Counted from the stretch's first letter, positions 17,850 through 25,905 are shown. The stretch is DNA of 27,222 nucleotides from an uncultured archaeon (GCA_964447495.1 CAYUTF010000028.1:1-27222); one strand, 5' to 3'. Notes: generated from the sequence alone by a model not told the origin. Translations and numbers: made by a program.

Positions 17850-20129
17850 ATGGGGAATTTTAGTTTAAAGCTCAATAATATTTTATTTCATTTATATCTA
17901 AGAAGACATACGGTCGTCTTCTTATCTTCTTTAATATCACTTCTTTTAATAGCATTTAATGTTTTTGGAATAAATGCGCTACTGTCTAACTTTAATATTC
18001 CCATTTTAACTATTTTCTTACAAATATTAACGCTCTGTGCGACGGCATTTACAATATTATTCTTACCAAATTACCCATTATTCTTTATCTTGCTTAAAAA
18101 AAAAGAATTTACCTTTTTAGAAAAACTTGGGATAACAATATCTTTTAATTTAGCGTTTTTTATTCTGATTGGTTATCTCGGCAATTCTTTTGGAATTCCA
18201 ATCACTGGTTTTTTCTATTTTTTAGTTGTTGCTACTATTTATTTTCTGTTTATATTGTTTATTATTATTAAAGATGTCAGAAGAAAAACTGTTTTTTTCC
18301 TTCAAAAACCTGCTAGCTCTGATGAAAAAGAACTGATCTATACCAATTTTTCATTTATTAGCTACTGTAAAAGTAAAGTCCGCTTAAATATAGTGCTACT
18401 ATTTGTTTTCTTAATATTGTTGTCTGTTGTTCATTCGATTCGGTTTAGTTATTTTTATGGTACAGATGCTATGTATCATGTCTTTATGATGAATATGATA
18501 ACTAAACTCAATTATTTACCAACGAATCAATATTTTGGCGCTTTAGGTTTGCATATCTTTGGAGCCGTAATTAACTTTTTTTCAAATATAAATGTTATTT
18601 TAATAGGTAAATATTTTCTATTTTATACATATTTTGTATCAGCATTAATCTTTTATAATATTTTAAAGAGAATTTTTAAAAATCAAAATATAGCTATATT
18701 TGGTGTATTTCTATTAGAGAGTTCCTCGTTAGGGTTTAGTGTTATGATGTATGAGTTTTGGCCAACGAGCTTAGCTACAATACTCTCTTTAGAAATTTTT
18801 TTTCTATTATATGTACGACTTCAAAATTTTATTAAATTAGAACGACCAGATAAAAAAAATGTCCTCTCAAATATTTCATTTAATTATGCATTGATAATTT
18901 TACTTGGAGTGAGTGCTATTTTCACTCACTCATTAATCTCTATGATTTATATCGTTTCATTTTCGTTTATTTTTCTGATATATTTCGTTAAAAACTACAG
19001 GAGAGGAATCGATTTTATCGTTTTATGTATTGTATTACTAATCTTCTTAGCTTTATATGATACCACAGAGATAAGTCTTCATTGGAGGATTGCTAATTTT
19101 TTAAGTCTTCCTTGGTATTTTTTCATATTGGGTGGAATTGGCGGTGTGACATTAATCTTATATTTAAGAAGAGGTATAGATTTTTCTTCTGGACGATATA
19201 AAGCAGTAATTACTGGTAAAAAATATAAATACTATAAGACTCTTGAGGATAAATTCATTTTTCCCCTACTCTATTCATCTATAGTAATATTACTGTTCGT
19301 TTTTTGGTATTTAAATGTTTTTTTCCTTGATATGTATTTCTCAAAAATATTAATTTTAATAGAGAGCTTGATATTTGGATTTTTTTGCTACTGGGGACTT
19401 ATACTATTTCAAAAGCGAAGAAAAGGTAAACCGCTTTATTTATGGTTATTAGGGTTAATTGTTATTTATTTAGGAGCTTTTTCTCTTGATGTTTTTGTAT
19501 TACACGAATTTTGGTCGGGACGAATTTTACTTCTTTTCTCTCCTGTTATCATTATTGGATTTATGGCATATTTTTTTAAGATGTTAAAACTCAAATTAAT
19601 AAATACTCCCAAAATGAAATTTTTTATCTTGTTTGTTGTAATTTTTTCATTCTTCGCTCAATACTCTGATCTATTGATTGATGTCGATGGAATTGAATAT
19701 AACCTATATCATAGAGAAGTAAAATCTATATATTGGTATGCTAAGTATACTGATCAGCGAAATCTTATTATATGTGAATTTGGATTACCCTATGTTCTTT
19801 ATTATTATGACTATCCTTATGAAGAGAATAATAAGAGTATAACTACCTCAGATATTATAATAATTAATCAAAATCCCTTAGGATTTTTTAAACCAGAAGA
19901 TCATTTCTATGAAAATGGAACAAATAAATTACAGCAGTTAAAAGCAGAGTTAAATACAGATATTTACCTTATTCTAGATGATAATTATTTAGTATTTGGA
20001 ACTTGGGAAGTTTTTCAACGCCTAACCGAACAAGAGATGGCAAGTTATTATTATATGGATTATCTTAATAGAATTGCATCCTGTAAAAGTGAAAATGGTA
20101 TAGAAGTGCCCTATTACTGGGTCATTTAA
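17850..20129 (+). CDS. Large multi-pass membrane protein, putative GT-C-fold glycosyltransferase
   Basis: 759 aa with many hydrophobic helices; GTDAMYH loop (DxxYH, 18459-18479) after the N-terminal helices; soluble C-terminal domain starting REVKSIYWYAKYT. No WWDYG motif. Confidence 0.6.
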   Translation: MGNFSLKLNNILFHLYLRRHTVVFLSSLISLLLIAFNVFGINALLSNFNIPILTIFLQILTLCATAFTILFLPNYPLFFILLKKKEFTFLEKLGITISFNLAFFILIGYLGNSFGIPITGFFYFLVVATIYFLFILFIIIKDVRRKTVFFLQKPASSDEKELIYTNFSFISYCKSKVRLNIVLLFVFLILLSVVHSIRFSYFYGTDAMYHVFMMNMITKLNYLPTNQYFGALGLHIFGAVINFFSNINVILIGKYFLFYTYFVSALIFYNILKRIFKNQNIAIFGVFLLESSSLGFSVMMYEFWPTSLATILSLEIFFLLYVRLQNFIKLERPDKKNVLSNISFNYALIILLGVSAIFTHSLISMIYIVSFSFIFLIYFVKNYRRGIDFIVLCIVLLIFLALYDTTEISLHWRIANFLSLPWYFFILGGIGGVTLILYLRRGIDFSSGRYKAVITGKKYKYYKTLEDKFIFPLLYSSIVILLFVFWYLNVFFLDMYFSKILILIESLIFGFFCYWGLILFQKRRKGKPLYLWLLGLIVIYLGAFSLDVFVLHEFWSGRILLLFSPVIIIGFMAYFFKMLKLKLINTPKMKFFILFVVIFSFFAQYSDLLIDVDGIEYNLYHREVKSIYWYAKYTDQRNLIICEFGLPYVLYYYDYPYEENNKSITTSDIIIINQNPLGFFKPEDHFYENGTNKLQQLKAELNTDIYLILDDNYLVFGTWEVFQRLTEQEMASYYYMDYLNRIASCKSENGIEVPYYWVI

Positions 20130-20910
20130 TAATCTCAAACCCTTCTGAAAAAGAATTAGTAAATTTTTCTTTTAAAATCTCATCTTTATCGCCTGTAATT
20201 TTAAACATCTTAGGAATTTTACCTGAATATCCAATTTTATCATTTCTACAAATAAAAGCGCCATTTACTCCATCAATATCATCCGCGTTATCTAATGCAT
20301 CCTTGATTGATTTTTCGATATCACTCCCTTTAACTAGGTTCCCAATTTTTGTTGCAGCTCCATCTGCTATGGTAGCATTTTTGGCAAATATGGTAACAAT
20401 ATCGGATTGTCCCAAACTTACAGCATGGCCGATTTTAGCAGAACTAGAAGCAATGCCCATGGGACACTCTTTTTTCTCAATTAAAAAACCAATATTAAGA
20501 TTTAATTTGTTATAGCCTGCATACAGAGCAATCTTCATTGCTTTCTCAGAATCTACTGCTATTTCGCCTCCATTTTCAATGAGAGCAACTTTTGCTGGAA
20601 CAGGGTTTGATATCGATTTAATTTTCATCTCCTCAAGCATCAAATCTGCGAAAGCACCTGCAACTGTAGCCATTGGCCCCACATCACATAATAGAGAACC
20701 TTCAGTCATTAAATTAATTATTCGTTCGTCAGTATGAATCTCTATGGGTGAAAACGAGGTCAAAAATTCGTTATGAGATTTAATATAATTTTCTAATATT
20801 CTTCTATGCCTAAAAAATCCCTTTTTTGCTACTAAAATTGCTTTTCTTGATTCCGAAATTAGTGTAATATCTGATTCTTTTTCAGTAAAATGATATTTAT
20901 ATAGTTTCAA
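20122..20910 (-). CDS. UPF0280 family (ApbE-like) protein
   Basis: KESDITLI, VGPMATVAGA, IENGGEIA, GIASSSAKIGHAVSLGQSD and ADGAATKIGN are typical of archaeal UPF0280 proteins. TTG start; 3' end overlaps the convergent gene by 8 bp. Confidence 0.85.
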   Translation of the reverse strand: MKLYKYHFTEKESDITLISESRKAILVAKKGFFRHRRILENYIKSHNEFLTSFSPIEIHTDERIINLMTEGSLLCDVGPMATVAGAFADLMLEEMKIKSISNPVPAKVALIENGGEIAVDSEKAMKIALYAGYNKLNLNIGFLIEKKECPMGIASSSAKIGHAVSLGQSDIVTIFAKNATIADGAATKIGNLVKGSDIEKSIKDALDNADDIDGVNGAFICRNDKIGYSGKIPKMFKITGDKDEILKEKFTNSFSEGFEIIK

Positions 20911-21020: not shown

Positions 21021-21512
21021 ATGAAACAAATTAACTATGATGAAATTATAACCCAATTAAAGCGGGAGATCAATTCTGAATGTGCAATTGCGAATCGCTA
21101 TGGAATAGTATTGGGATCACTAATCAAAGAATTTGCTATAGGAAAGGTTATTCCTCAAAGGATTCTTTCATTAATATCTAATTCACAAAATATTGCAAAA
21201 GAATTAAATCTTAATCGTATAAATTCTTTCGCTATAGAAGCTCAAGAGTATAATTATTTATTTACGTTTAATGAAGAGTTAATTTTAATTTCTAAATTAA
21301 ATTTAGATGTGAATTTAGCAAAATTCATGCCAAGTATCAGTGTGTTTTTGAAAAGACTAAGTGAAAGCTCCAAAGATATAGAGATTAATGAATTCTCTGT
21401 TTTTGATTTTTCCAAGGAGATTAGTAAAATTCAAGATACTTTAAAAGAAGAGAAAATAAGAGAAAAGAAGTATTCTATTATAAAAGATCTAGTTAAATAT
21501 ATTTCAAATTAG
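21021..21512 (+). CDS. Roadblock/LC7 (MglB-like) domain protein with a C-terminal helical extension
   Basis: Pattern helix - CAIANRYGIVLGS - helix - KELNLNRINSFAIE..YNYLF..ELILIS..DVNLAKF - helix fits the roadblock topology; directly upstream of a small GTPase gene. Confidence 0.6.
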   Translation: MKQINYDEIITQLKREINSECAIANRYGIVLGSLIKEFAIGKVIPQRILSLISNSQNIAKELNLNRINSFAIEAQEYNYLFTFNEELILISKLNLDVNLAKFMPSISVFLKRLSESSKDIEINEFSVFDFSKEISKIQDTLKEEKIREKKYSIIKDLVKYISN

Positions 21513-21518
21513 ATATAC

Positions 21519-21526
21519 AGGAGTGA
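21519..21526 (+). promoter_or_regulatory. Shine-Dalgarno-like site AGGAGTGA for the longin-GTPase gene
   Basis: Lies between the roadblock stop (21512) and ATT codons at 21530/21533; no comparable site precedes ATG 21638. Confidence 0.6.
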
Positions 21527-21529
21527 AGC

Positions 21530-23695
21530 ATTATTTTAAGGCAAGTATATATTTATAAAGGCAATGATTTACTATATTATAGGCATTTCGGTAAAGCTCT
21601 AAAAACTGAAGTCTTTGATGCATTAATTAAAGATTTAATGCGCGATGCTTTTAGTAAAGGTGGAAATAAGGTAGAATATCATGATTATTATAAATACCGC
21701 ATATCTTATATTTCAGTAAAGGATTTAGAATTAATGTTTTTATTTGTAACTGGCTTAACTGATAATTTTGATAATATAAAGAAAGAATTGACAAAATGTA
21801 AAAAAGAATTTTTAAACCTATTTGAGGATATTATTCAGCATAAGTATGACTCTAAAACTTTTGAGGTTTTCGATCCCACCATTGACTCTATTCATAGAAA
21901 TTTACGTCCAAAAATCTCTCTCGTTGGATTTTCTGGAGTTGGAAAAACTACAATCACTCGTTTGATAAAAGCTGAAGAAATTCCGATGCAACATATCCCT
22001 ACAATCACAGGAGATATTGCAACGATTAAAATTGGTAAATTACACTTTCATCTTTGGGATTTTGCTGGTCAAGAGCAATTTAGTTATCTTTGGAATAATT
22101 TCATTAAAGGAAGTGATGCTGTTCTTCTAATAACGGATTCATCTTTAGAAAATGTAGAGAAAAGTAAATTTTTCTTAGAACTTATTAAAGAACAAGCACC
22201 AAATGCACATACCGCAATTATTGGAAATAAACAAGACTTAGAGCAGGCTATGAAACCCGAACAAATAGAAAAGATTTTGGGGTTGAAAACGTATTCCATG
22301 ATAGCAAAAAAAGCTGAAAATCGAGATAAAATGATTCAAATAGTAGCAGATATATTAGAGATGAGTGCAGAGGTTTCTCCTCTCTTAAAACCTTTATTAG
22401 AGAGGGATACATTTATAGAAGAGGCTACAAATGCATTAGAGAATGCAGAGTTTGAAAAAGCAGCTAATCTTTTTGAGAAAATAAGTGATTTATGCATTGA
22501 ATTAGGTGATGACTCATTGGGTCGTGAGTTTTATGAAAAGGCACAAAAAATTCGGTCAATGTTAGAAAAAGTAAGTTCTACTCAAACTGAAGTTAAAAAG
22601 GAACCCACATTAGAAGAACCAGTCTCTCCTCCTAAAGAAAAGCTTATTCCTCCTAAAGGAAAACCTATCCCTCCTGAAATAAAAGTTTTGAGGAAGGAAG
22701 AAAGCGGAGAAAGTGCACCAAAGCTGGAAGATGTGAAAGTTCCTGGTCCTCCACCTCCCCCACCAAAACCAATTTCAAAGGTTGAGACTAACCAAATTAA
22801 AACGGTTGAAATTAAAAAAGATGAAGAAAAACCAGTATCTTCAGAAGCTGCAATGGATAGCACTTCTTTAATTAAAGAGAGCACCTTTAGAAAAATTGAT
22901 AGTGCCTTAGAGGAGAGTAATGAAGCAGAAAAAGAAATAGTACCTAAACCGCAAGCTCAAAAAGTGGGATTAGAGTTAAATCCTGAAGATTTCATGGTAA
23001 AACAACGCCCAAAAACAGTTACTGCTGTTCCTAAAGATGCTAAGCAAAAGCTAAAAACATCTCCATATGGTCATGTGGAAAATACTCAAAAAGTTACGCC
23101 TACTGTTCCCGTAAATCCAGTTGAGTTAATTAAACCAAAATCATTTATACCCGCTAAAGAACAGAAGATTAAAAAAGAGTCTGTTTCATCCCAATCATTT
23201 CAATTATTCAAAGAAAGTTCATTTAAAACACCATTAGAAGTTAAACCACCTGTAAGCCCGACAATAAAACCCTCTAAACCACCCGAATTCATACCACAAC
23301 CTTCAAAAACGGAAATAGCCCCGAAGCCAATACCACAACCATTAGAAATCAAAGCACCAGTAGTTCCTATGATAAAACCTCCTAAAGTTGTCCCTGATTT
23401 AATTCCTGAATCGATCAAACCATCTGTTCCCTTGAAAGAATCCTCTCTGGAAACTGCACTTCCAAAGGAAATTCAACCTCAGTTAGATTCAGCACAAAAA
23501 TCGAATCTTGAAAAATCATTAATGGATTTAAAAGTGAAAAAAGCAAGTATATCTAAAATGGCTTTAGATCTTGATATGAAAGAATTAACTGGTGAAATTA
23601 CTCCTGATGAGCTCAATCAAAAGAAAGAAAAATTATCACAGATAGAAGAGAATATAAATAAACAAATTAGTGAAATAGAACGTATGTTAAAATAA
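21530..23695 (+). CDS. Longin domain-small GTPase (Arf/Rab-like) fusion with helical hairpin, long proline-rich linker and C-terminal coiled coil
   Basis: G1 GFSGVGKTT (21926), G2 IPTIT, G3 WDFAGQE, G4 GNKQD. The frame is open upstream of ATG 21638 back to TGA 21524-21526 and encodes IILRQVYIYKGNDLLYYRHFGKAL..., the first two longin beta strands. Start inferred at ATT 21530 or 21533. Confidence 0.82.
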   Translation: MILRQVYIYKGNDLLYYRHFGKALKTEVFDALIKDLMRDAFSKGGNKVEYHDYYKYRISYISVKDLELMFLFVTGLTDNFDNIKKELTKCKKEFLNLFEDIIQHKYDSKTFEVFDPTIDSIHRNLRPKISLVGFSGVGKTTITRLIKAEEIPMQHIPTITGDIATIKIGKLHFHLWDFAGQEQFSYLWNNFIKGSDAVLLITDSSLENVEKSKFFLELIKEQAPNAHTAIIGNKQDLEQAMKPEQIEKILGLKTYSMIAKKAENRDKMIQIVADILEMSAEVSPLLKPLLERDTFIEEATNALENAEFEKAANLFEKISDLCIELGDDSLGREFYEKAQKIRSMLEKVSSTQTEVKKEPTLEEPVSPPKEKLIPPKGKPIPPEIKVLRKEESGESAPKLEDVKVPGPPPPPPKPISKVETNQIKTVEIKKDEEKPVSSEAAMDSTSLIKESTFRKIDSALEESNEAEKEIVPKPQAQKVGLELNPEDFMVKQRPKTVTAVPKDAKQKLKTSPYGHVENTQKVTPTVPVNPVELIKPKSFIPAKEQKIKKESVSSQSFQLFKESSFKTPLEVKPPVSPTIKPSKPPEFIPQPSKTEIAPKPIPQPLEIKAPVVPMIKPPKVVPDLIPESIKPSVPLKESSLETALPKEIQPQLDSAQKSNLEKSLMDLKVKKASISKMALDLDMKELTGEITPDELNQKKEKLSQIEENINKQISEIERMLK
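22628..22690 (+). repeat. Three degenerate 21-nt in-frame tandem repeats (PPKEKLI / PPKGKPI / PPEIKVL)
   Basis: CCTCCT at 22628, 22649 and 22670; the first two continue as CCTCCTAAAG. Confidence 0.7.
23231..23445 (+). repeat. Degenerate 108-nt (36-aa) internal duplication in the proline-rich linker
   Basis: CCATTAGAA at 23231 and 23339; PLEVKPPVSPTIKPSKPPEFIP vs PLEIKAPVVPMIKPPKVVPDLIP. ATACCACAACC also recurs at 23291 and 23330. Confidence 0.7.
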
Positions 23696-23750
23696 CTTTT
23701 TTAGTGTCTTTCTTTTCTTGTTACTGAAATTATAGTTTTTTTCTATTTTT
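23696..23750 (+). terminator. Putative archaeal oligo-T terminator region after the longin-GTPase gene
   Basis: CTTTTTT...CTTTCTTTTCTT...GTTTTTTTCTATTTTT directly after TAA 23695. Confidence 0.4.
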
Positions 23751-23871
23751 ACTAAAAGAATAAGCTAAATTACAATTTTCTATTTAGTAACATTATACCT
23801 AAATTATTGTAAAAAATATTTATGTGATTATAACTTATAAAATTTTAAATTTTAGCTTTTAAATATCGATT

Positions 23872-23878
23872 GAGGTGG
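23872..23878 (+). promoter_or_regulatory. Shine-Dalgarno-like site GAGGTGG for the aspartate kinase gene
   Basis: 5 nt upstream of in-frame ATT 23884 and 20 nt upstream of ATG 23899. Confidence 0.6.
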
Positions 23879-23883
23879 AATAA

Positions 23884-25320
23884 ATTACTCTGATCATAAT
23901 GAAATTTGGAGGGAGTTGCTTAATCAATAATCAAGCTTTTAAAAAAATTATAAAAATAACCAAGCTTTATCAAAATGAGCAAAAAATCTATGTTGCTTCG
24001 GCATTAAATGGAATAACGGATTTACTGTTAAAGATGGCCAAGAGTGCTGAATCTGAAAAAGAGATCGACAATGATATGGCTTTATTAGAAAAGAGACATC
24101 TTGACGTAATTGAACAAATATTTAAGGAGGAGAGTGAGCATTATGTTAAAGCTAAAGATTGGGTTGATGAAAATCTTGGTTATTTAGAAAATCTTTTAGC
24201 GGATATCCGAGAATTTGGTTTTGAACCGTATTATCAAGATTATGTGATAAGTTTCGGAGAAATTCTTTCAACTTATATTCTTAATCAATACTTATTGAGT
24301 AAAGGGTATGATTCAATCTATATTCCTGCGAATGAGATAATTATCACAAACGATGAGTACAATAATGCTTATCCTTTATTTGAACTGACAAATGCGCGAA
24401 TGAAAAAATTAATAGTCCCTTTTTTAGAATTCCCTAAAGAAAATCTAATCATTTGTATAACAGGCTTTATTGGAAGAAATAAAATAGGATATACCACAAC
24501 ACTAGGACGAGGAGGCTCCGATTATACCGCAACGATTTTAGCACGCTCTTTATCAGAATTAGGGGTAGATAAAGATATCAAGGTTATCCTATGGAAAGAT
24601 GTTGATGGTATTTTAGCAATTGATCCCGATTTTGTGCCCCATTCATCGCTTATACGTTACTTAGACTATGATGAGGCAAAACACATTGCAAATTTTGGCG
24701 CAAAAGTGCTCCATCCAAAATGCTTAGAATCAATTGAAAAACTAAATATTCCATTAGAAATAAGAAATTTTAATAATCCTTATGAAGAAATTAATTATAC
24801 TACAATCTCGCCTAAATCCGACAAAGACCAAATTAAAGGTATCTCTACCATACAAGATGGAATCATAATCACAATTACTTCGGGTAGTCTTGTGGATATG
24901 CCCGGTGTTCTTGCTAAAATATTTAAAGTGATAAGTAAAAGTAAAATCAGTGTGTCTTTAGTTGCTCAGAGTGCTACAGAAATTAGTACGTCCTTTATTG
25001 TGAAAAAGGAAGATGCTGATAATGCAATTAGTTCTTTGAAAAGCTCGGATTACTTTTCTGAATTTTTTAAGATTAAATTTGAGGAGGTTGCTATAATCAA
25101 TATCACTGGTTCTAAAGTATTAGATAATATTACTAAAGTCAAAATTTTTCAAGCATTTGATAAAAAGAATATAAAAGTCAAAGCATTATCACAGAGCACT
25201 GATGAGATCAATTTTTCTATTGTTATTCAAAAAGATAGATTAATGGATGCGGTAAAAATATTACATCATGATCTATGCAAAGAATTTGAATCCATAAAAT
25301 GTAGTGATGAAATTGAATAA
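23884..25320 (+). CDS. lysC: Aspartate kinase with two C-terminal ACT domains
   Basis: KFGGS, VASA..GITD, SFGEILS, TGFIG, TTTLGRGGSDYTA, DVDG and FGAKVLHP; two ACT repeats (PGVLAKIF...QS.TEISTSF and KIFQAF...SQS.DEINFS). In-frame upstream ITLII completes the usual first strand, so the start is inferred at ATT 23884 (track ATG 23899). Confidence 0.9.
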   Translation: MTLIIMKFGGSCLINNQAFKKIIKITKLYQNEQKIYVASALNGITDLLLKMAKSAESEKEIDNDMALLEKRHLDVIEQIFKEESEHYVKAKDWVDENLGYLENLLADIREFGFEPYYQDYVISFGEILSTYILNQYLLSKGYDSIYIPANEIIITNDEYNNAYPLFELTNARMKKLIVPFLEFPKENLIICITGFIGRNKIGYTTTLGRGGSDYTATILARSLSELGVDKDIKVILWKDVDGILAIDPDFVPHSSLIRYLDYDEAKHIANFGAKVLHPKCLESIEKLNIPLEIRNFNNPYEEINYTTISPKSDKDQIKGISTIQDGIIITITSGSLVDMPGVLAKIFKVISKSKISVSLVAQSATEISTSFIVKKEDADNAISSLKSSDYFSEFFKIKFEEVAIINITGSKVLDNITKVKIFQAFDKKNIKVKALSQSTDEINFSIVIQKDRLMDAVKILHHDLCKEFESIKCSDEIE

Positions 25321-25321
25321 G

Positions 25322-25343
25322 TGAACATTAAGAATTATGTTCA
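25322..25343. terminator. Short inverted repeat between the convergent lysC and Rab-like genes (possible bidirectional terminator)
   Basis: TGAACAT-N8-ATGTTCA immediately after the lysC stop. Confidence 0.3.
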
Positions 25344-25377
25344 AATTGCCAAATACAATAAATCTGATGAGTTCTTA

Positions 25378-25905
25378 TTAAGAGGTTCTGGAATCAATAA
25401 TTCTTCGTGTGAGTTCTGTAAACGCATCATCAACATTTATTCCTGTTTTTGCAGAGGTTTCAATGTAAATGCTTCCCTCTTTTTCAGCGAAAGAACGAGC
25501 TTCATTCTTATCTATCACAACTCCAACGTCCTCTACCAAATCTGCTTTATTGCCAATTAAAACAAAAGGAATGTTTTCTCCAGCAAATTGACGTATCTCG
25601 GTTAACCACTTCCTAGTTTCCGTATATGTTTGTTCTCGAGTTAAATCAAAAACTAATAAAGCTCCTGCTGCTCCTTTATAGAAGGTGGATCGGATAAACT
25701 CGAATCTCTGTTGACCTCCTATATCCCAGATGCTCAGAGTTGCAATCTCACCTTGCCGAAATTCAACATCTTTAGTAAGAATATCCACTCCTACCGTCAG
25801 TTTATAATTTGCCGCAAAGCGATTCTTGATGAATCTTTGTACTAAACTTGTTTTACCAACCGCAGCAGCACCAGTGAGCAATACTTTTAATTTAAAACTT
25901 GACAT
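25378..25905 (-). CDS. Rab-like small GTPase without a C-terminal prenylation tail
   Basis: FKLKVLLTGAAAVGKTSL (G1), YKLTVGVD (G2), IWDIGGQQRF (G3), FYKGAAGALLVFDLT, IGNKAD (G4) and ETSAKTG (G5); ends IIDSRTS with no Cys. Confidence 0.92.
   Translation of the reverse strand: MSSFKLKVLLTGAAAVGKTSLVQRFIKNRFAANYKLTVGVDILTKDVEFRQGEIATLSIWDIGGQQRFEFIRSTFYKGAAGALLVFDLTREQTYTETRKWLTEIRQFAGENIPFVLIGNKADLVEDVGVVIDKNEARSFAEKEGSIYIETSAKTGINVDDAFTELTRRIIDSRTS

Follow-up and report, generated by a model that had tools for sequence, protein, structure and literature searches.

In Myxococcus xanthus and Thermus thermophilus, the roadblock-fold regulator MglB is encoded beside its small Ras-like GTPase, MglA. 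The Ragulator-Rag system of eukaryotes, which signals amino acids to TORC1 together with the longin-type GTPase activators FLCN-FNIP and GATOR1, is assembled from roadblock dimers, longin domains and small GTPases, and the ACT domains of the arginine sensor CASTOR1 are related to those of aspartate kinases. Asgard archaea possess dozens of eukaryote-like small GTPases and roadblock/longin proteins. As far as the available portions of the reports go, five longin domains fused to lokiarchaeal Arf-like GTPases were described (PMC4917890, citing Klinger et al. 2016), longin fused to Rag-family GTPases was mentioned (preprint 10.1101/2020.10.19.343400), and longin-G, G-roadblock and longin-G-roadblock builds were found in strain MK-D1 (PMC10933270). 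According to the accessible part of the latter, it is almost never predictable from the genome which regulator serves which Asgard GTPase. Here, a 27,222-base stretch of DNA from an uncultured archaeon (GCA_964447495.1, CAYUTF010000028.1:1-27222; the window) was analysed. The window comprises the whole source contig C28 of a 3.8 Mb genome, which is 98% complete and has ~29% G+C, and its genes suggest an Asgard archaeon of the Loki type. Four genes are located within 21021-25905, encoding a roadblock-fold protein (+), a longin-GTPase (+), an aspartate kinase (+) and a convergent Rab-like GTPase (-). The first two probably constitute a two-gene operon and a functional unit in Loki-type Asgard archaea, with a mechanism proposed by analogy.

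The roadblock/longin-GTPase unit is one of the few matched regulator-GTPase pairs that are ready for the bench. It is a variant of known regulator-GTPase pairs, and the longin-GTPase fusion type is already in print; the added value lies in a negative synteny result, a conserved non-ATG start and the architectures of the paralogs. The gene content and strands given in the initial annotation of the window were reproduced by the gene calls and the Pfam scan. Its four domain assignments were also sustained, the roadblock and longin ones by structure models, having been missed by sequence profiles, and the kinase/ACT and Rab-like ones by profiles.

Conservation and probable coupling of the pair

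The features of the pair, in window coordinates, are listed below (AF2, AlphaFold2; pLDDT, predicted local distance difference test).

21021-21512, + strand: roadblock-fold protein, 163 amino acids, first gene of the pair (AF2 model, Foldseek, ortholog position)
within 21021-21512, + strand: predicted roadblock core, residues ~6-117, and additional C-terminal helix, residues ~131-162 (AF2 model)
21520-21535, + strand: GGAGTGA ribosome-binding motif (21520-21526, with in-frame TGA), 6 nt, and apparent ATT start (21533-21535) (sequence; ortholog comparison)
21533-23695, + strand, frame open from 21527: longin-GTPase, 720 amino acids (Pfam G domain, AF2 model, ortholog alignment)
21533-21910, + strand: predicted longin domain, residues 1-126 (AF2 pLDDT 80-94; VIA-align; no Pfam match)
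21911-22372, + strand: Arf/Rab-like G domain, residues ~127-280 (Pfam, VIA-align, motif conservation)
22373-22588, + strand: three-helix region, residues ~281-352 (AF2 helices 286-303, 307-324, 327-350)
22589-23476, + strand: low-complexity Pro/Lys/Glu-rich linker, residues ~353-648 (composition; ortholog variability)
23477-23695, + strand: helical/coiled-coil-like C-terminal end piece, residues ~649-720, and stop (ortholog conservation)

Gene order was compared in 36 other genomes, with the window proteins mapped onto up to 8-10 kb to the left and right of the GTPase or roadblock ortholog. The roadblock gene was situated directly upstream of the longin-GTPase gene in 36 of 37 loci, the window counted. 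The adjacency was retained in all 14 other loci of the genus, in 16 of the 17 loci that represent seven further genera of the family, and in 5/5 genomes of two other families. The strong link between the two genes that the initial annotation had proposed was thus borne out. In the five genomes of the other families, no window gene stayed near the pair besides that of the UPF0280-family protein (2/5).

The identity of the roadblock protein was 66-80% within the genus and 29-38% in the other families. With a roadblock profile at E<=1e-5, a single copy per genome was detected in 39 of 40 sampled genomes of the family and a match was found in one of three genomes of a second family, while the 157 genomes of 25 further families of the phylum gave none. 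When the open frames around paralogs and distant homologs (L052-L071, L117) were searched with the roadblock profile, matches were obtained solely in L053, L054 and L117, the loci that contain the known orthologs.

The first ATG of the longin-GTPase is located at 21638, yet the conservation starts ~35 codons earlier (88% identity from residue 2). The codon ahead of the conserved Leu-Arg was ATT, ATC or ATA in 14 of the 15 genus rows, including the window, the exception being the ATG of L044. The same was observed in 16/16 loci of the other genera of the family; four of these, from two genera, also carry an in-frame GTG 3-4 codons upstream as a possible alternative start. In the orthologs of the other families, the position is occupied by ATG or GTG (5/5). 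A GGTGA-type motif lies 6 nt upstream of the start codon across the family (loci L035-L046, L053-L054, L102-L118) and its TGA is an in-frame stop in most loci; in one locus, a stop codon immediately precedes the ATT. No internal Met was conserved in the GTPase alignment. Judged from the sequences, the longin-GTPase would start at ATT 21533, 20 nt past the roadblock stop, because of the early conservation, the conserved ATT/ATC/ATA codon, the ribosome-binding motif and the lack of a conserved internal Met. The gap of 17-20 bp given earlier for the two genes holds only if the start is ATT 21530 or ATT 21533, of which the ortholog alignment favours 21533.

Folds, proposed mechanism and its weighing

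For the 163-residue protein, no family was found in Pfam, tried to E<=10, or in NCBIfam, and the PF03259 Robl_LC7 model was not matched. The AF2 model, built with an 18-row ortholog alignment, had a mean pLDDT of 76.6. The order of its elements is helix-strand-strand-helix-strand-strand-strand-helix (H6-17, E20-25, E29-33, H46-61, E69-74, E77-83, E87-94, H99-117), followed by one extra C-terminal helix. The top Foldseek matches against the PDB were roadblock proteins, with a probability of 1.00 and E values from 8e-6 to 3e-4. These included the MK-D1 roadblocks 9jue and 7yh1, the Thorarchaeota roadblock 7f8m, MglB (3t1x, 6hjm, 1j3w, 6h5b) and LAMTOR chains (7t3a_O, 5x6v_B, 5y3a_B). In terms of the modelled structure, the protein belongs to the roadblock/LC7 fold family, and by fold only, since neither the Pfam Robl_LC7 nor an NCBIfam model was matched.

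The core of the longin-GTPase (residues 1-360) was modelled by AF2 with a 30-row alignment of orthologs and paralogs, resulting in a pLDDT of 79.5. Residues 1-123 are arranged as strand-strand-helix-strand-strand-strand-helix-helix (E2-9, E12-18, H25-42, E48-52, E55-62, E67-74, H79-97, H107-123), with no N-terminal helix. When residues 1-126 of the model were compared with longin domains by VIA-align, the Z scores were 14.4 for VAMP7 (4afi_B; 117 residues aligned, root-mean-square deviation 2.9), 13.9 for Sec22 (3egd_C) and 13.3 for synbindin (2zmv_A). The VIA-align lists were dominated by G domains, which makes the absence of other folds from them uninformative. According to the model, residues 1-126 form a longin domain; no usable match to this part was obtained in Pfam, NCBIfam or the ESM Atlas. 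In a comparison with the longin-domain GAP class (FLCN, NPRL2, SMCR8 type), the alignment showed strands 1-2 lacking a Gly-Pro pair, together with a nearly invariant Arg3 and an invariant Gly20.

Within the longin-GTPase, Pfam recognised the G domain only (residues 126-272), with Arf at 1.8e-22 (80.1 bits) and Ras at 4.6e-16 (59.3 bits), whereas the Gtr1_RagA score was just 28.4 bits. The VIA-align search with residues 125-277 gave Arf1, Rab6 and Sec4 at Z ~15 and MglA (5ymx) at Z 14.1. The motifs GFSGVGKTT (P-loop), PTITGD (switch I Thr), WDFAGQE (switch II Gln) and NKQD were invariant or at least 90% conserved in the 30 orthologs and paralogs. Since the nucleotide-binding motifs are invariant or nearly so, the sequence predicts that the longin-GTPase should be active. 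The protein falls outside the Arf family proper, its G domain being preceded by the 126-residue longin domain and not by an N-terminal amphipathic helix. It also falls outside the Rag/Gtr class, with the weak Gtr1_RagA score and a C-terminus made of three helices, a disordered arm and a helical end, with no roadblock domain.

The three-helix region is conserved in orthologs and in short paralogs. The linker that follows has 296 residues (P 18%, K 16%, E 12%) and varies in length and sequence: the ortholog open frames, measured from stop to stop, span 564-776 amino acids, and the tblastn matches in this part are weak or patchy. Unlike the linker, the last ~70 residues of the 72-residue end piece were matched at 47-60% in other genera and at 31% in another family. 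In Pfam, the end piece gave weak SHOCT and CdvA-type matches only.

The window GTPase shares with the lokiarchaeal longin-Arf-like ('Rag-like') fusions the succession of a longin domain, then a small Arf/Rab-like G domain. The upstream roadblock gene, the non-ATG start, the Pro/Lys-rich arm and the end piece do not occur in the accessible parts of those accounts. The encoding of a roadblock-fold regulator beside a small GTPase is common to the window and the MglB-MglA system, and MglB was among the best structural matches of the 163-residue protein and MglA among those of the G domain. Unlike MglA, the window GTPase bears its own longin domain and a long tail, and it keeps the switch II Gln. 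Unlike MglB, the window roadblock protein has an extra C-terminal helix and fails Pfam Robl_LC7, and its role as a GTPase-activating protein (GAP) is putative. The building blocks of the pair are also those of Ragulator-Rag with FLCN-FNIP and GATOR1, and LAMTOR chains match the roadblock protein. In contrast to the Rag GTPases, the window GTPase scores as Arf/Ras and lacks a C-terminal roadblock domain.

MglB-MglA, Ragulator-Rag and the longin-Rab complexes of TRAPP suggest, by analogy, how the pair may work. The roadblock protein would dimerise into a platform, with either a second copy of itself or the longin domain of the GTPase as its partner. This platform would contact the switch face of the G domain and set the GTP/GDP state as a GAP or a guanine nucleotide exchange factor (GEF), and the arm with the end piece may serve to anchor the switch to an oligomer or a partner. 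Through the weak ATT start after the roadblock stop, translation of the GTPase would probably be coupled to that of the roadblock protein, which may keep the GTPase the less abundant of the two partners.

Several points weigh against the pair as a two-gene functional unit. In genome G161, the roadblock gene is on contig C53 (L117:5858-6361) and the longin-GTPase ortholog (74%) on C61:23638-24552; the split may be a real rearrangement or an assembly mis-join. The available portion of PMC10933270 states that operons joining a GTPase gene with roadblock or longin genes are not the general case in MK-D1, so that a roadblock-GTPase operon would be an exception. The kinase and Rab-like genes stay downstream of the pair in 23 of 26 informative family loci, so that, judged by synteny alone, a family-specific functional link may exist. 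That such modules can have Rab-type partners is shown by paralogs that have a Ras-like neighbour or contain a Rab-like domain. The binding and the activity of the pair remain predicted by analogy. When the roadblock protein was modelled in complex with residues 1-285 of the longin-GTPase, in a run without controls, the score was 0.00, which counts neither for nor against binding.

That the roadblock protein is a generic GAP or scaffold of the MglB kind, working alone or upon other GTPases, and that the adjacency reflects co-expression only, was considered quite unlikely. Such a role would suit a genome with dozens of Ras-superfamily GTPases (79 first-look candidates) and other roadblock fusions, as well as the parting of the two genes in G161. 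It is opposed by an adjacency that outlasts all other synteny across families, down to a roadblock identity of 29-38%, by the single roadblock copy per genome, and by the 20-nt spacing and weak start codon, which fit coupled translation. The two-gene unit was preferred over this reading. The joint lack of the roadblock and longin-GTPase genes in five genomes of the genus was rejected as evidence; the two absences are not independent because adjacent genes vanish together with one missing contig in fragmented genomes.

Two further observations concern the surroundings of the pair. The roadblock gene of G161 faces a convergent longin-G-roadblock-Rab paralog and a 245-residue coiled-coil frame. 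In two genera of another family, a coiled-coil (SMC-like) protein of ~350-378 amino acids adjoins the pair (L047:5863-6918, L049:9818-10867, L050:9831-10967); it shows 30-33% identity over the full length between the genera, and its homolog in the window's genome is located unlinked on contig C191.

The aspartate kinase and the Rab-like GTPase as neighbours

The remaining features of the neighbourhood are as follows.

20122-20910, - strand: UPF0280-family protein (NCBIfam NF003321, E 9e-66, under its cut-off)
23696-23883, no strand: spacer of 188 nt between the GTPase and kinase genes (T6 at 23697-23702, T7 at 23736-23742, AT-rich TATA-like stretches, GAGGTGGA at 23873-23880)
23884/23899-25320, + strand: aspartate kinase with two ACT domains (Pfam, NCBIfam, start comparison)
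25378-25905, - strand: Rab/Ras-like small GTPase, 175 amino acids, convergent with the kinase across a 57-nt gap (Pfam Ras 1.9e-49)

Further flanking genes of the window encode a 759-residue membrane protein and a RACo-type protein. The initial annotation had put forward the kinase and the Rab-like GTPase as candidate parts of one module with the pair, calling the kinase link speculative. In the genus, the kinase was detected downstream of the pair in 12/12 and the Rab-like gene in 11/11 informative loci. Of the 14 informative loci of the other genera of the family, 11 also have both genes downstream of the pair, while L107, L108 and L114 showed neither. The flanking UPF0280, 759-residue membrane protein and RACo genes hold their order in the family equally well. 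In 7 of 23 family loci, unrelated genes are placed between the GTPase and the kinase: a convergent PHP phosphoesterase, a major facilitator superfamily transporter, a methyltransferase, an epimerase and unknowns.

Within 8 kb of the pair, the five genomes of the other families had neither the kinase nor the Rab-like gene. In two of these, which are single-contig genomes, the Rab ortholog is 1.2-1.3 Mb from the pair; the kinase is 0.9 Mb away in G032, and G038 gave no kinase match at E<=1e-20. In the remaining three, both orthologs are on contigs other than that of the pair. Two genomes of the window's genus, G013 (98% complete) and G006, yielded neither gene of the pair, and their Rab ortholog (83% and 77%, respectively) has no window gene within 9 kb.

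As far as gene order tells, the kinase and the Rab-like gene are bystanders. Their adjacency is the block-wide synteny of close relatives within one family, because the whole block, including the unrelated flanks, keeps its order in the family. The neighbourhood comparison suggested with the initial annotation therefore had a divided outcome: the neighbourhood is kept within the family, and outside it the aspartate kinase gene (lysC) and the Rab-like gene are unlinked from the pair. With 0/5 loci in other families and insertions in 7/23 family loci, the inclusion of these two genes in a module was not supported.

The kinase possesses an AA_kinase domain (PF00696, 1e-32, residues 1-290) and two ACT stretches (ACT_9, 6.8e-23) by Pfam, and it passes the NCBIfam aspartate kinase model TIGR00657 with 288.9 bits against a cut-off of 208.7. 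Of the four AA_kinase matches in the genome, all but this one are too short for ACT domains. The genes asd and hom, one of each, are located on other contigs. Since it is the sole ACT-bearing aspartate kinase, with asd and hom elsewhere, the protein looks like the ordinary housekeeping entry enzyme of the aspartate pathway. Two starts come into question: ATT 23884, a position taken by ATG or TTG in 11 orthologs and lying 3 nt after GAGGTGGA, and the first ATG, at 23899, five codons on. The T-rich spacer of ~190 nt described earlier ahead of the kinase was confirmed as 188 nt with T6 and T7 runs. A scan of the spacer for bacterial-type promoters and terminators, which is unsuited to archaea, gave counts equal to those of shuffled sequences.

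The idea that the four genes make up one amino-acid-sensing module was judged highly improbable. In that scheme, the ACT domains of the kinase report the amino-acid status to the roadblock/longin-GTPase switch and the Rab-like GTPase, similarly to CASTOR1, Ragulator, GATOR1 and FLCN acting on the Rag GTPases. It draws on the gene order kept in 12/12 informative loci of the genus and 11/14 of the other family genera. In other lineages, a gamma-glutamyltranspeptidase gene lies two genes from the pair (L047, L049), and genes of Opp-type peptide ABC transporters (L048, L050) or of an HMGL-like synthase (L107, L108) are near it. The accessible portion of preprint 10.1101/2020.10.19.343400 also speculates that Asgard longin/roadblock/GTPase sets are related to amino-acid starvation signalling.

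These points are countered by the absence of kinase and Rab orthologs near the pair in the other-family genomes, by the unrelated genes between GTPase and kinase, and by the unrelated flanks, whose equal conservation indicates block synteny. The kinase is parted from the GTPase by the T-rich spacer; its catalytic domain is complete, it scores above the cut-off of the aspartate-kinase model, and it is the genome's sole ACT-bearing one. Unlike CASTOR1, it is a complete enzyme with AA_kinase and two ACT domains, and so is not an ACT sensor of the CASTOR type. The amino-acid neighbours form a broad class picked post hoc, and 3-4 such lineages are not unusual in peptide-fermenting archaea by a rough estimate that was not computed. 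No counterpart of TOR kinase, GATOR or CASTOR was found, none having been sought beyond the aspartate kinase. A full-text literature search yielded no paper joining Asgard archaea with CASTOR1, nor Asgard GTPases with aspartate kinase. A prokaryotic amino-acid-sensing module around the aspartate kinase was not borne out, as it fails synteny outside one family and has no other support.

A narrower proposal, that the pair is a native Asgard switch reading the amino-acid or peptide supply and a free-standing forerunner of the Ragulator-Rag logic, was regarded as very unlikely. If true, the repeated placement beside amino-acid genes would be a matter of function, not chance, and sister modules would have swapped the roadblock for Rag-like GTPases or fused a roadblock-Rab unit in cis. 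The presence of amino-acid/peptide genes within one to three genes of the pair in other lineages is suggestive and was noticed post hoc.

Some side observations were made on the neighbouring genes. Two adjacent genes, those of the longin-GTPase and the kinase, both have apparent ATT starts. Some members of the genus (G013:C195, G006:C53, G022:C155, G020:C96) carry a second type of aspartate kinase, which shares 36-37% identity with that of the window. G020 holds both types; G013, G006 and G022 show the second type only and lack the pair. In the window, the UPF0280-family gene and the roadblock gene diverge; in a genus of another family (L047:9610-10320, L049:6621-7334), the former is on the same strand directly upstream, 12-41 nt from the roadblock gene.

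Paralogous longin-GTPases and possible Rab-type partners

Three paralogs of 689-697 amino acids, each in one frame, were identified in the same family: L063:7962-10052 (+), L062:4387-6456 (-) and L117:2714-4807 (+). Each combines a longin domain, an Arf-like G domain whose switch II is degenerate and without the Gln, a middle domain of ~137 residues and a Ras/Rab-like G domain. The middle domain was roadblock-like by Atlas features, with 26 of 30 matches in the Robl_LC7 set (score 0.93). A single sub-threshold Pfam roadblock match was obtained with one of the three proteins (E 0.0026, 17.9 bits against a cut-off of 23). The hhalign profile-profile alignment of the middle domain with the roadblock alignment gave no support (probability 0.6%, E 0.1), and sequence searches of the PDB with this domain returned nothing meaningful. 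In the window's genome, a separate 308-residue fusion of a roadblock and a Rab-like GTPase is encoded on contig C10:3922-4848 (-). This protein is the closest match (55-60%) to the C-terminal roadblock-Rab half of the fusion paralogs; the corresponding value of the window's Rab-like gene is 41%.

Two paralog operons have another composition. In L052:7318-9896 (-), genes of a Gtr1/RagA-like GTPase, a short longin-GTPase and a Ras-like GTPase follow in succession on one strand. In L066:6442-9895 (-), the longin-GTPase gene is flanked by a Rag-like gene on one side and, on the other, by a gene whose Rag-like G domain is preceded by an extra N-terminal region. The place of the window's roadblock gene, directly upstream of the longin-GTPase, is taken by the Rag-like gene in both operons. 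These loci thus hold true Gtr1/RagA-type GTPases, the GTPase type of the Rag systems, beside longin-GTPases. Taken together, the paralog sequences support a putative working relation of this GTPase type with roadblock domains and Rab/Rag-type GTPases generally. They give no pointer to the neighbouring Rab-like gene of the window.

The paralogs are also relevant to a three-part relay without the kinase, in which a roadblock and longin platform serves as a GEF or GAP of the neighbouring Rab-like GTPase, as in TRAPP and Mon1-Ccz1. Such a relay appears unlikely. It would be in accordance with the three fusion paralogs, which join the longin, G, roadblock-like and Rab-like G domains, with the Ras-like GTPase gene 17 nt after the longin-GTPase on the same strand in L052, and with the Rab-like gene being, in most of the family, no more than a few kb away from the pair. 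However, the fused Rab-like domain is closest in the window's genome to the roadblock-Rab protein on C10 (60%) and not to the window's Rab (41%, on the fifth-ranked contig). In all five other-family genomes, the Rab ortholog is unlinked from the pair, and it is kept in different surroundings in G013 and G006, two genomes in which the pair was not detected. In the window itself, the Rab-like gene is convergent and the kinase gene lies in between. The convergent Rab-like GTPase is a separate core GTPase, and the two-gene roadblock/longin-GTPase unit remains the preferred reading.

The identity of the Rab-like GTPase was 88-95% in the genus and 66-73% in the other families. In the genus, it is much more conserved than the kinase (63-69%) or the roadblock protein (66-80%). 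The Rab-like protein lacks a C-terminal Cys for prenylation. In one genus (L112:304-854), its ortholog is in two pieces 26 nt apart, which may reflect a frameshift, a small insertion or a sequencing error. On contig C45:3339-13276 of the window's genome, several Gtr1/RagA-like GTPase matches are clustered within 10 kb.

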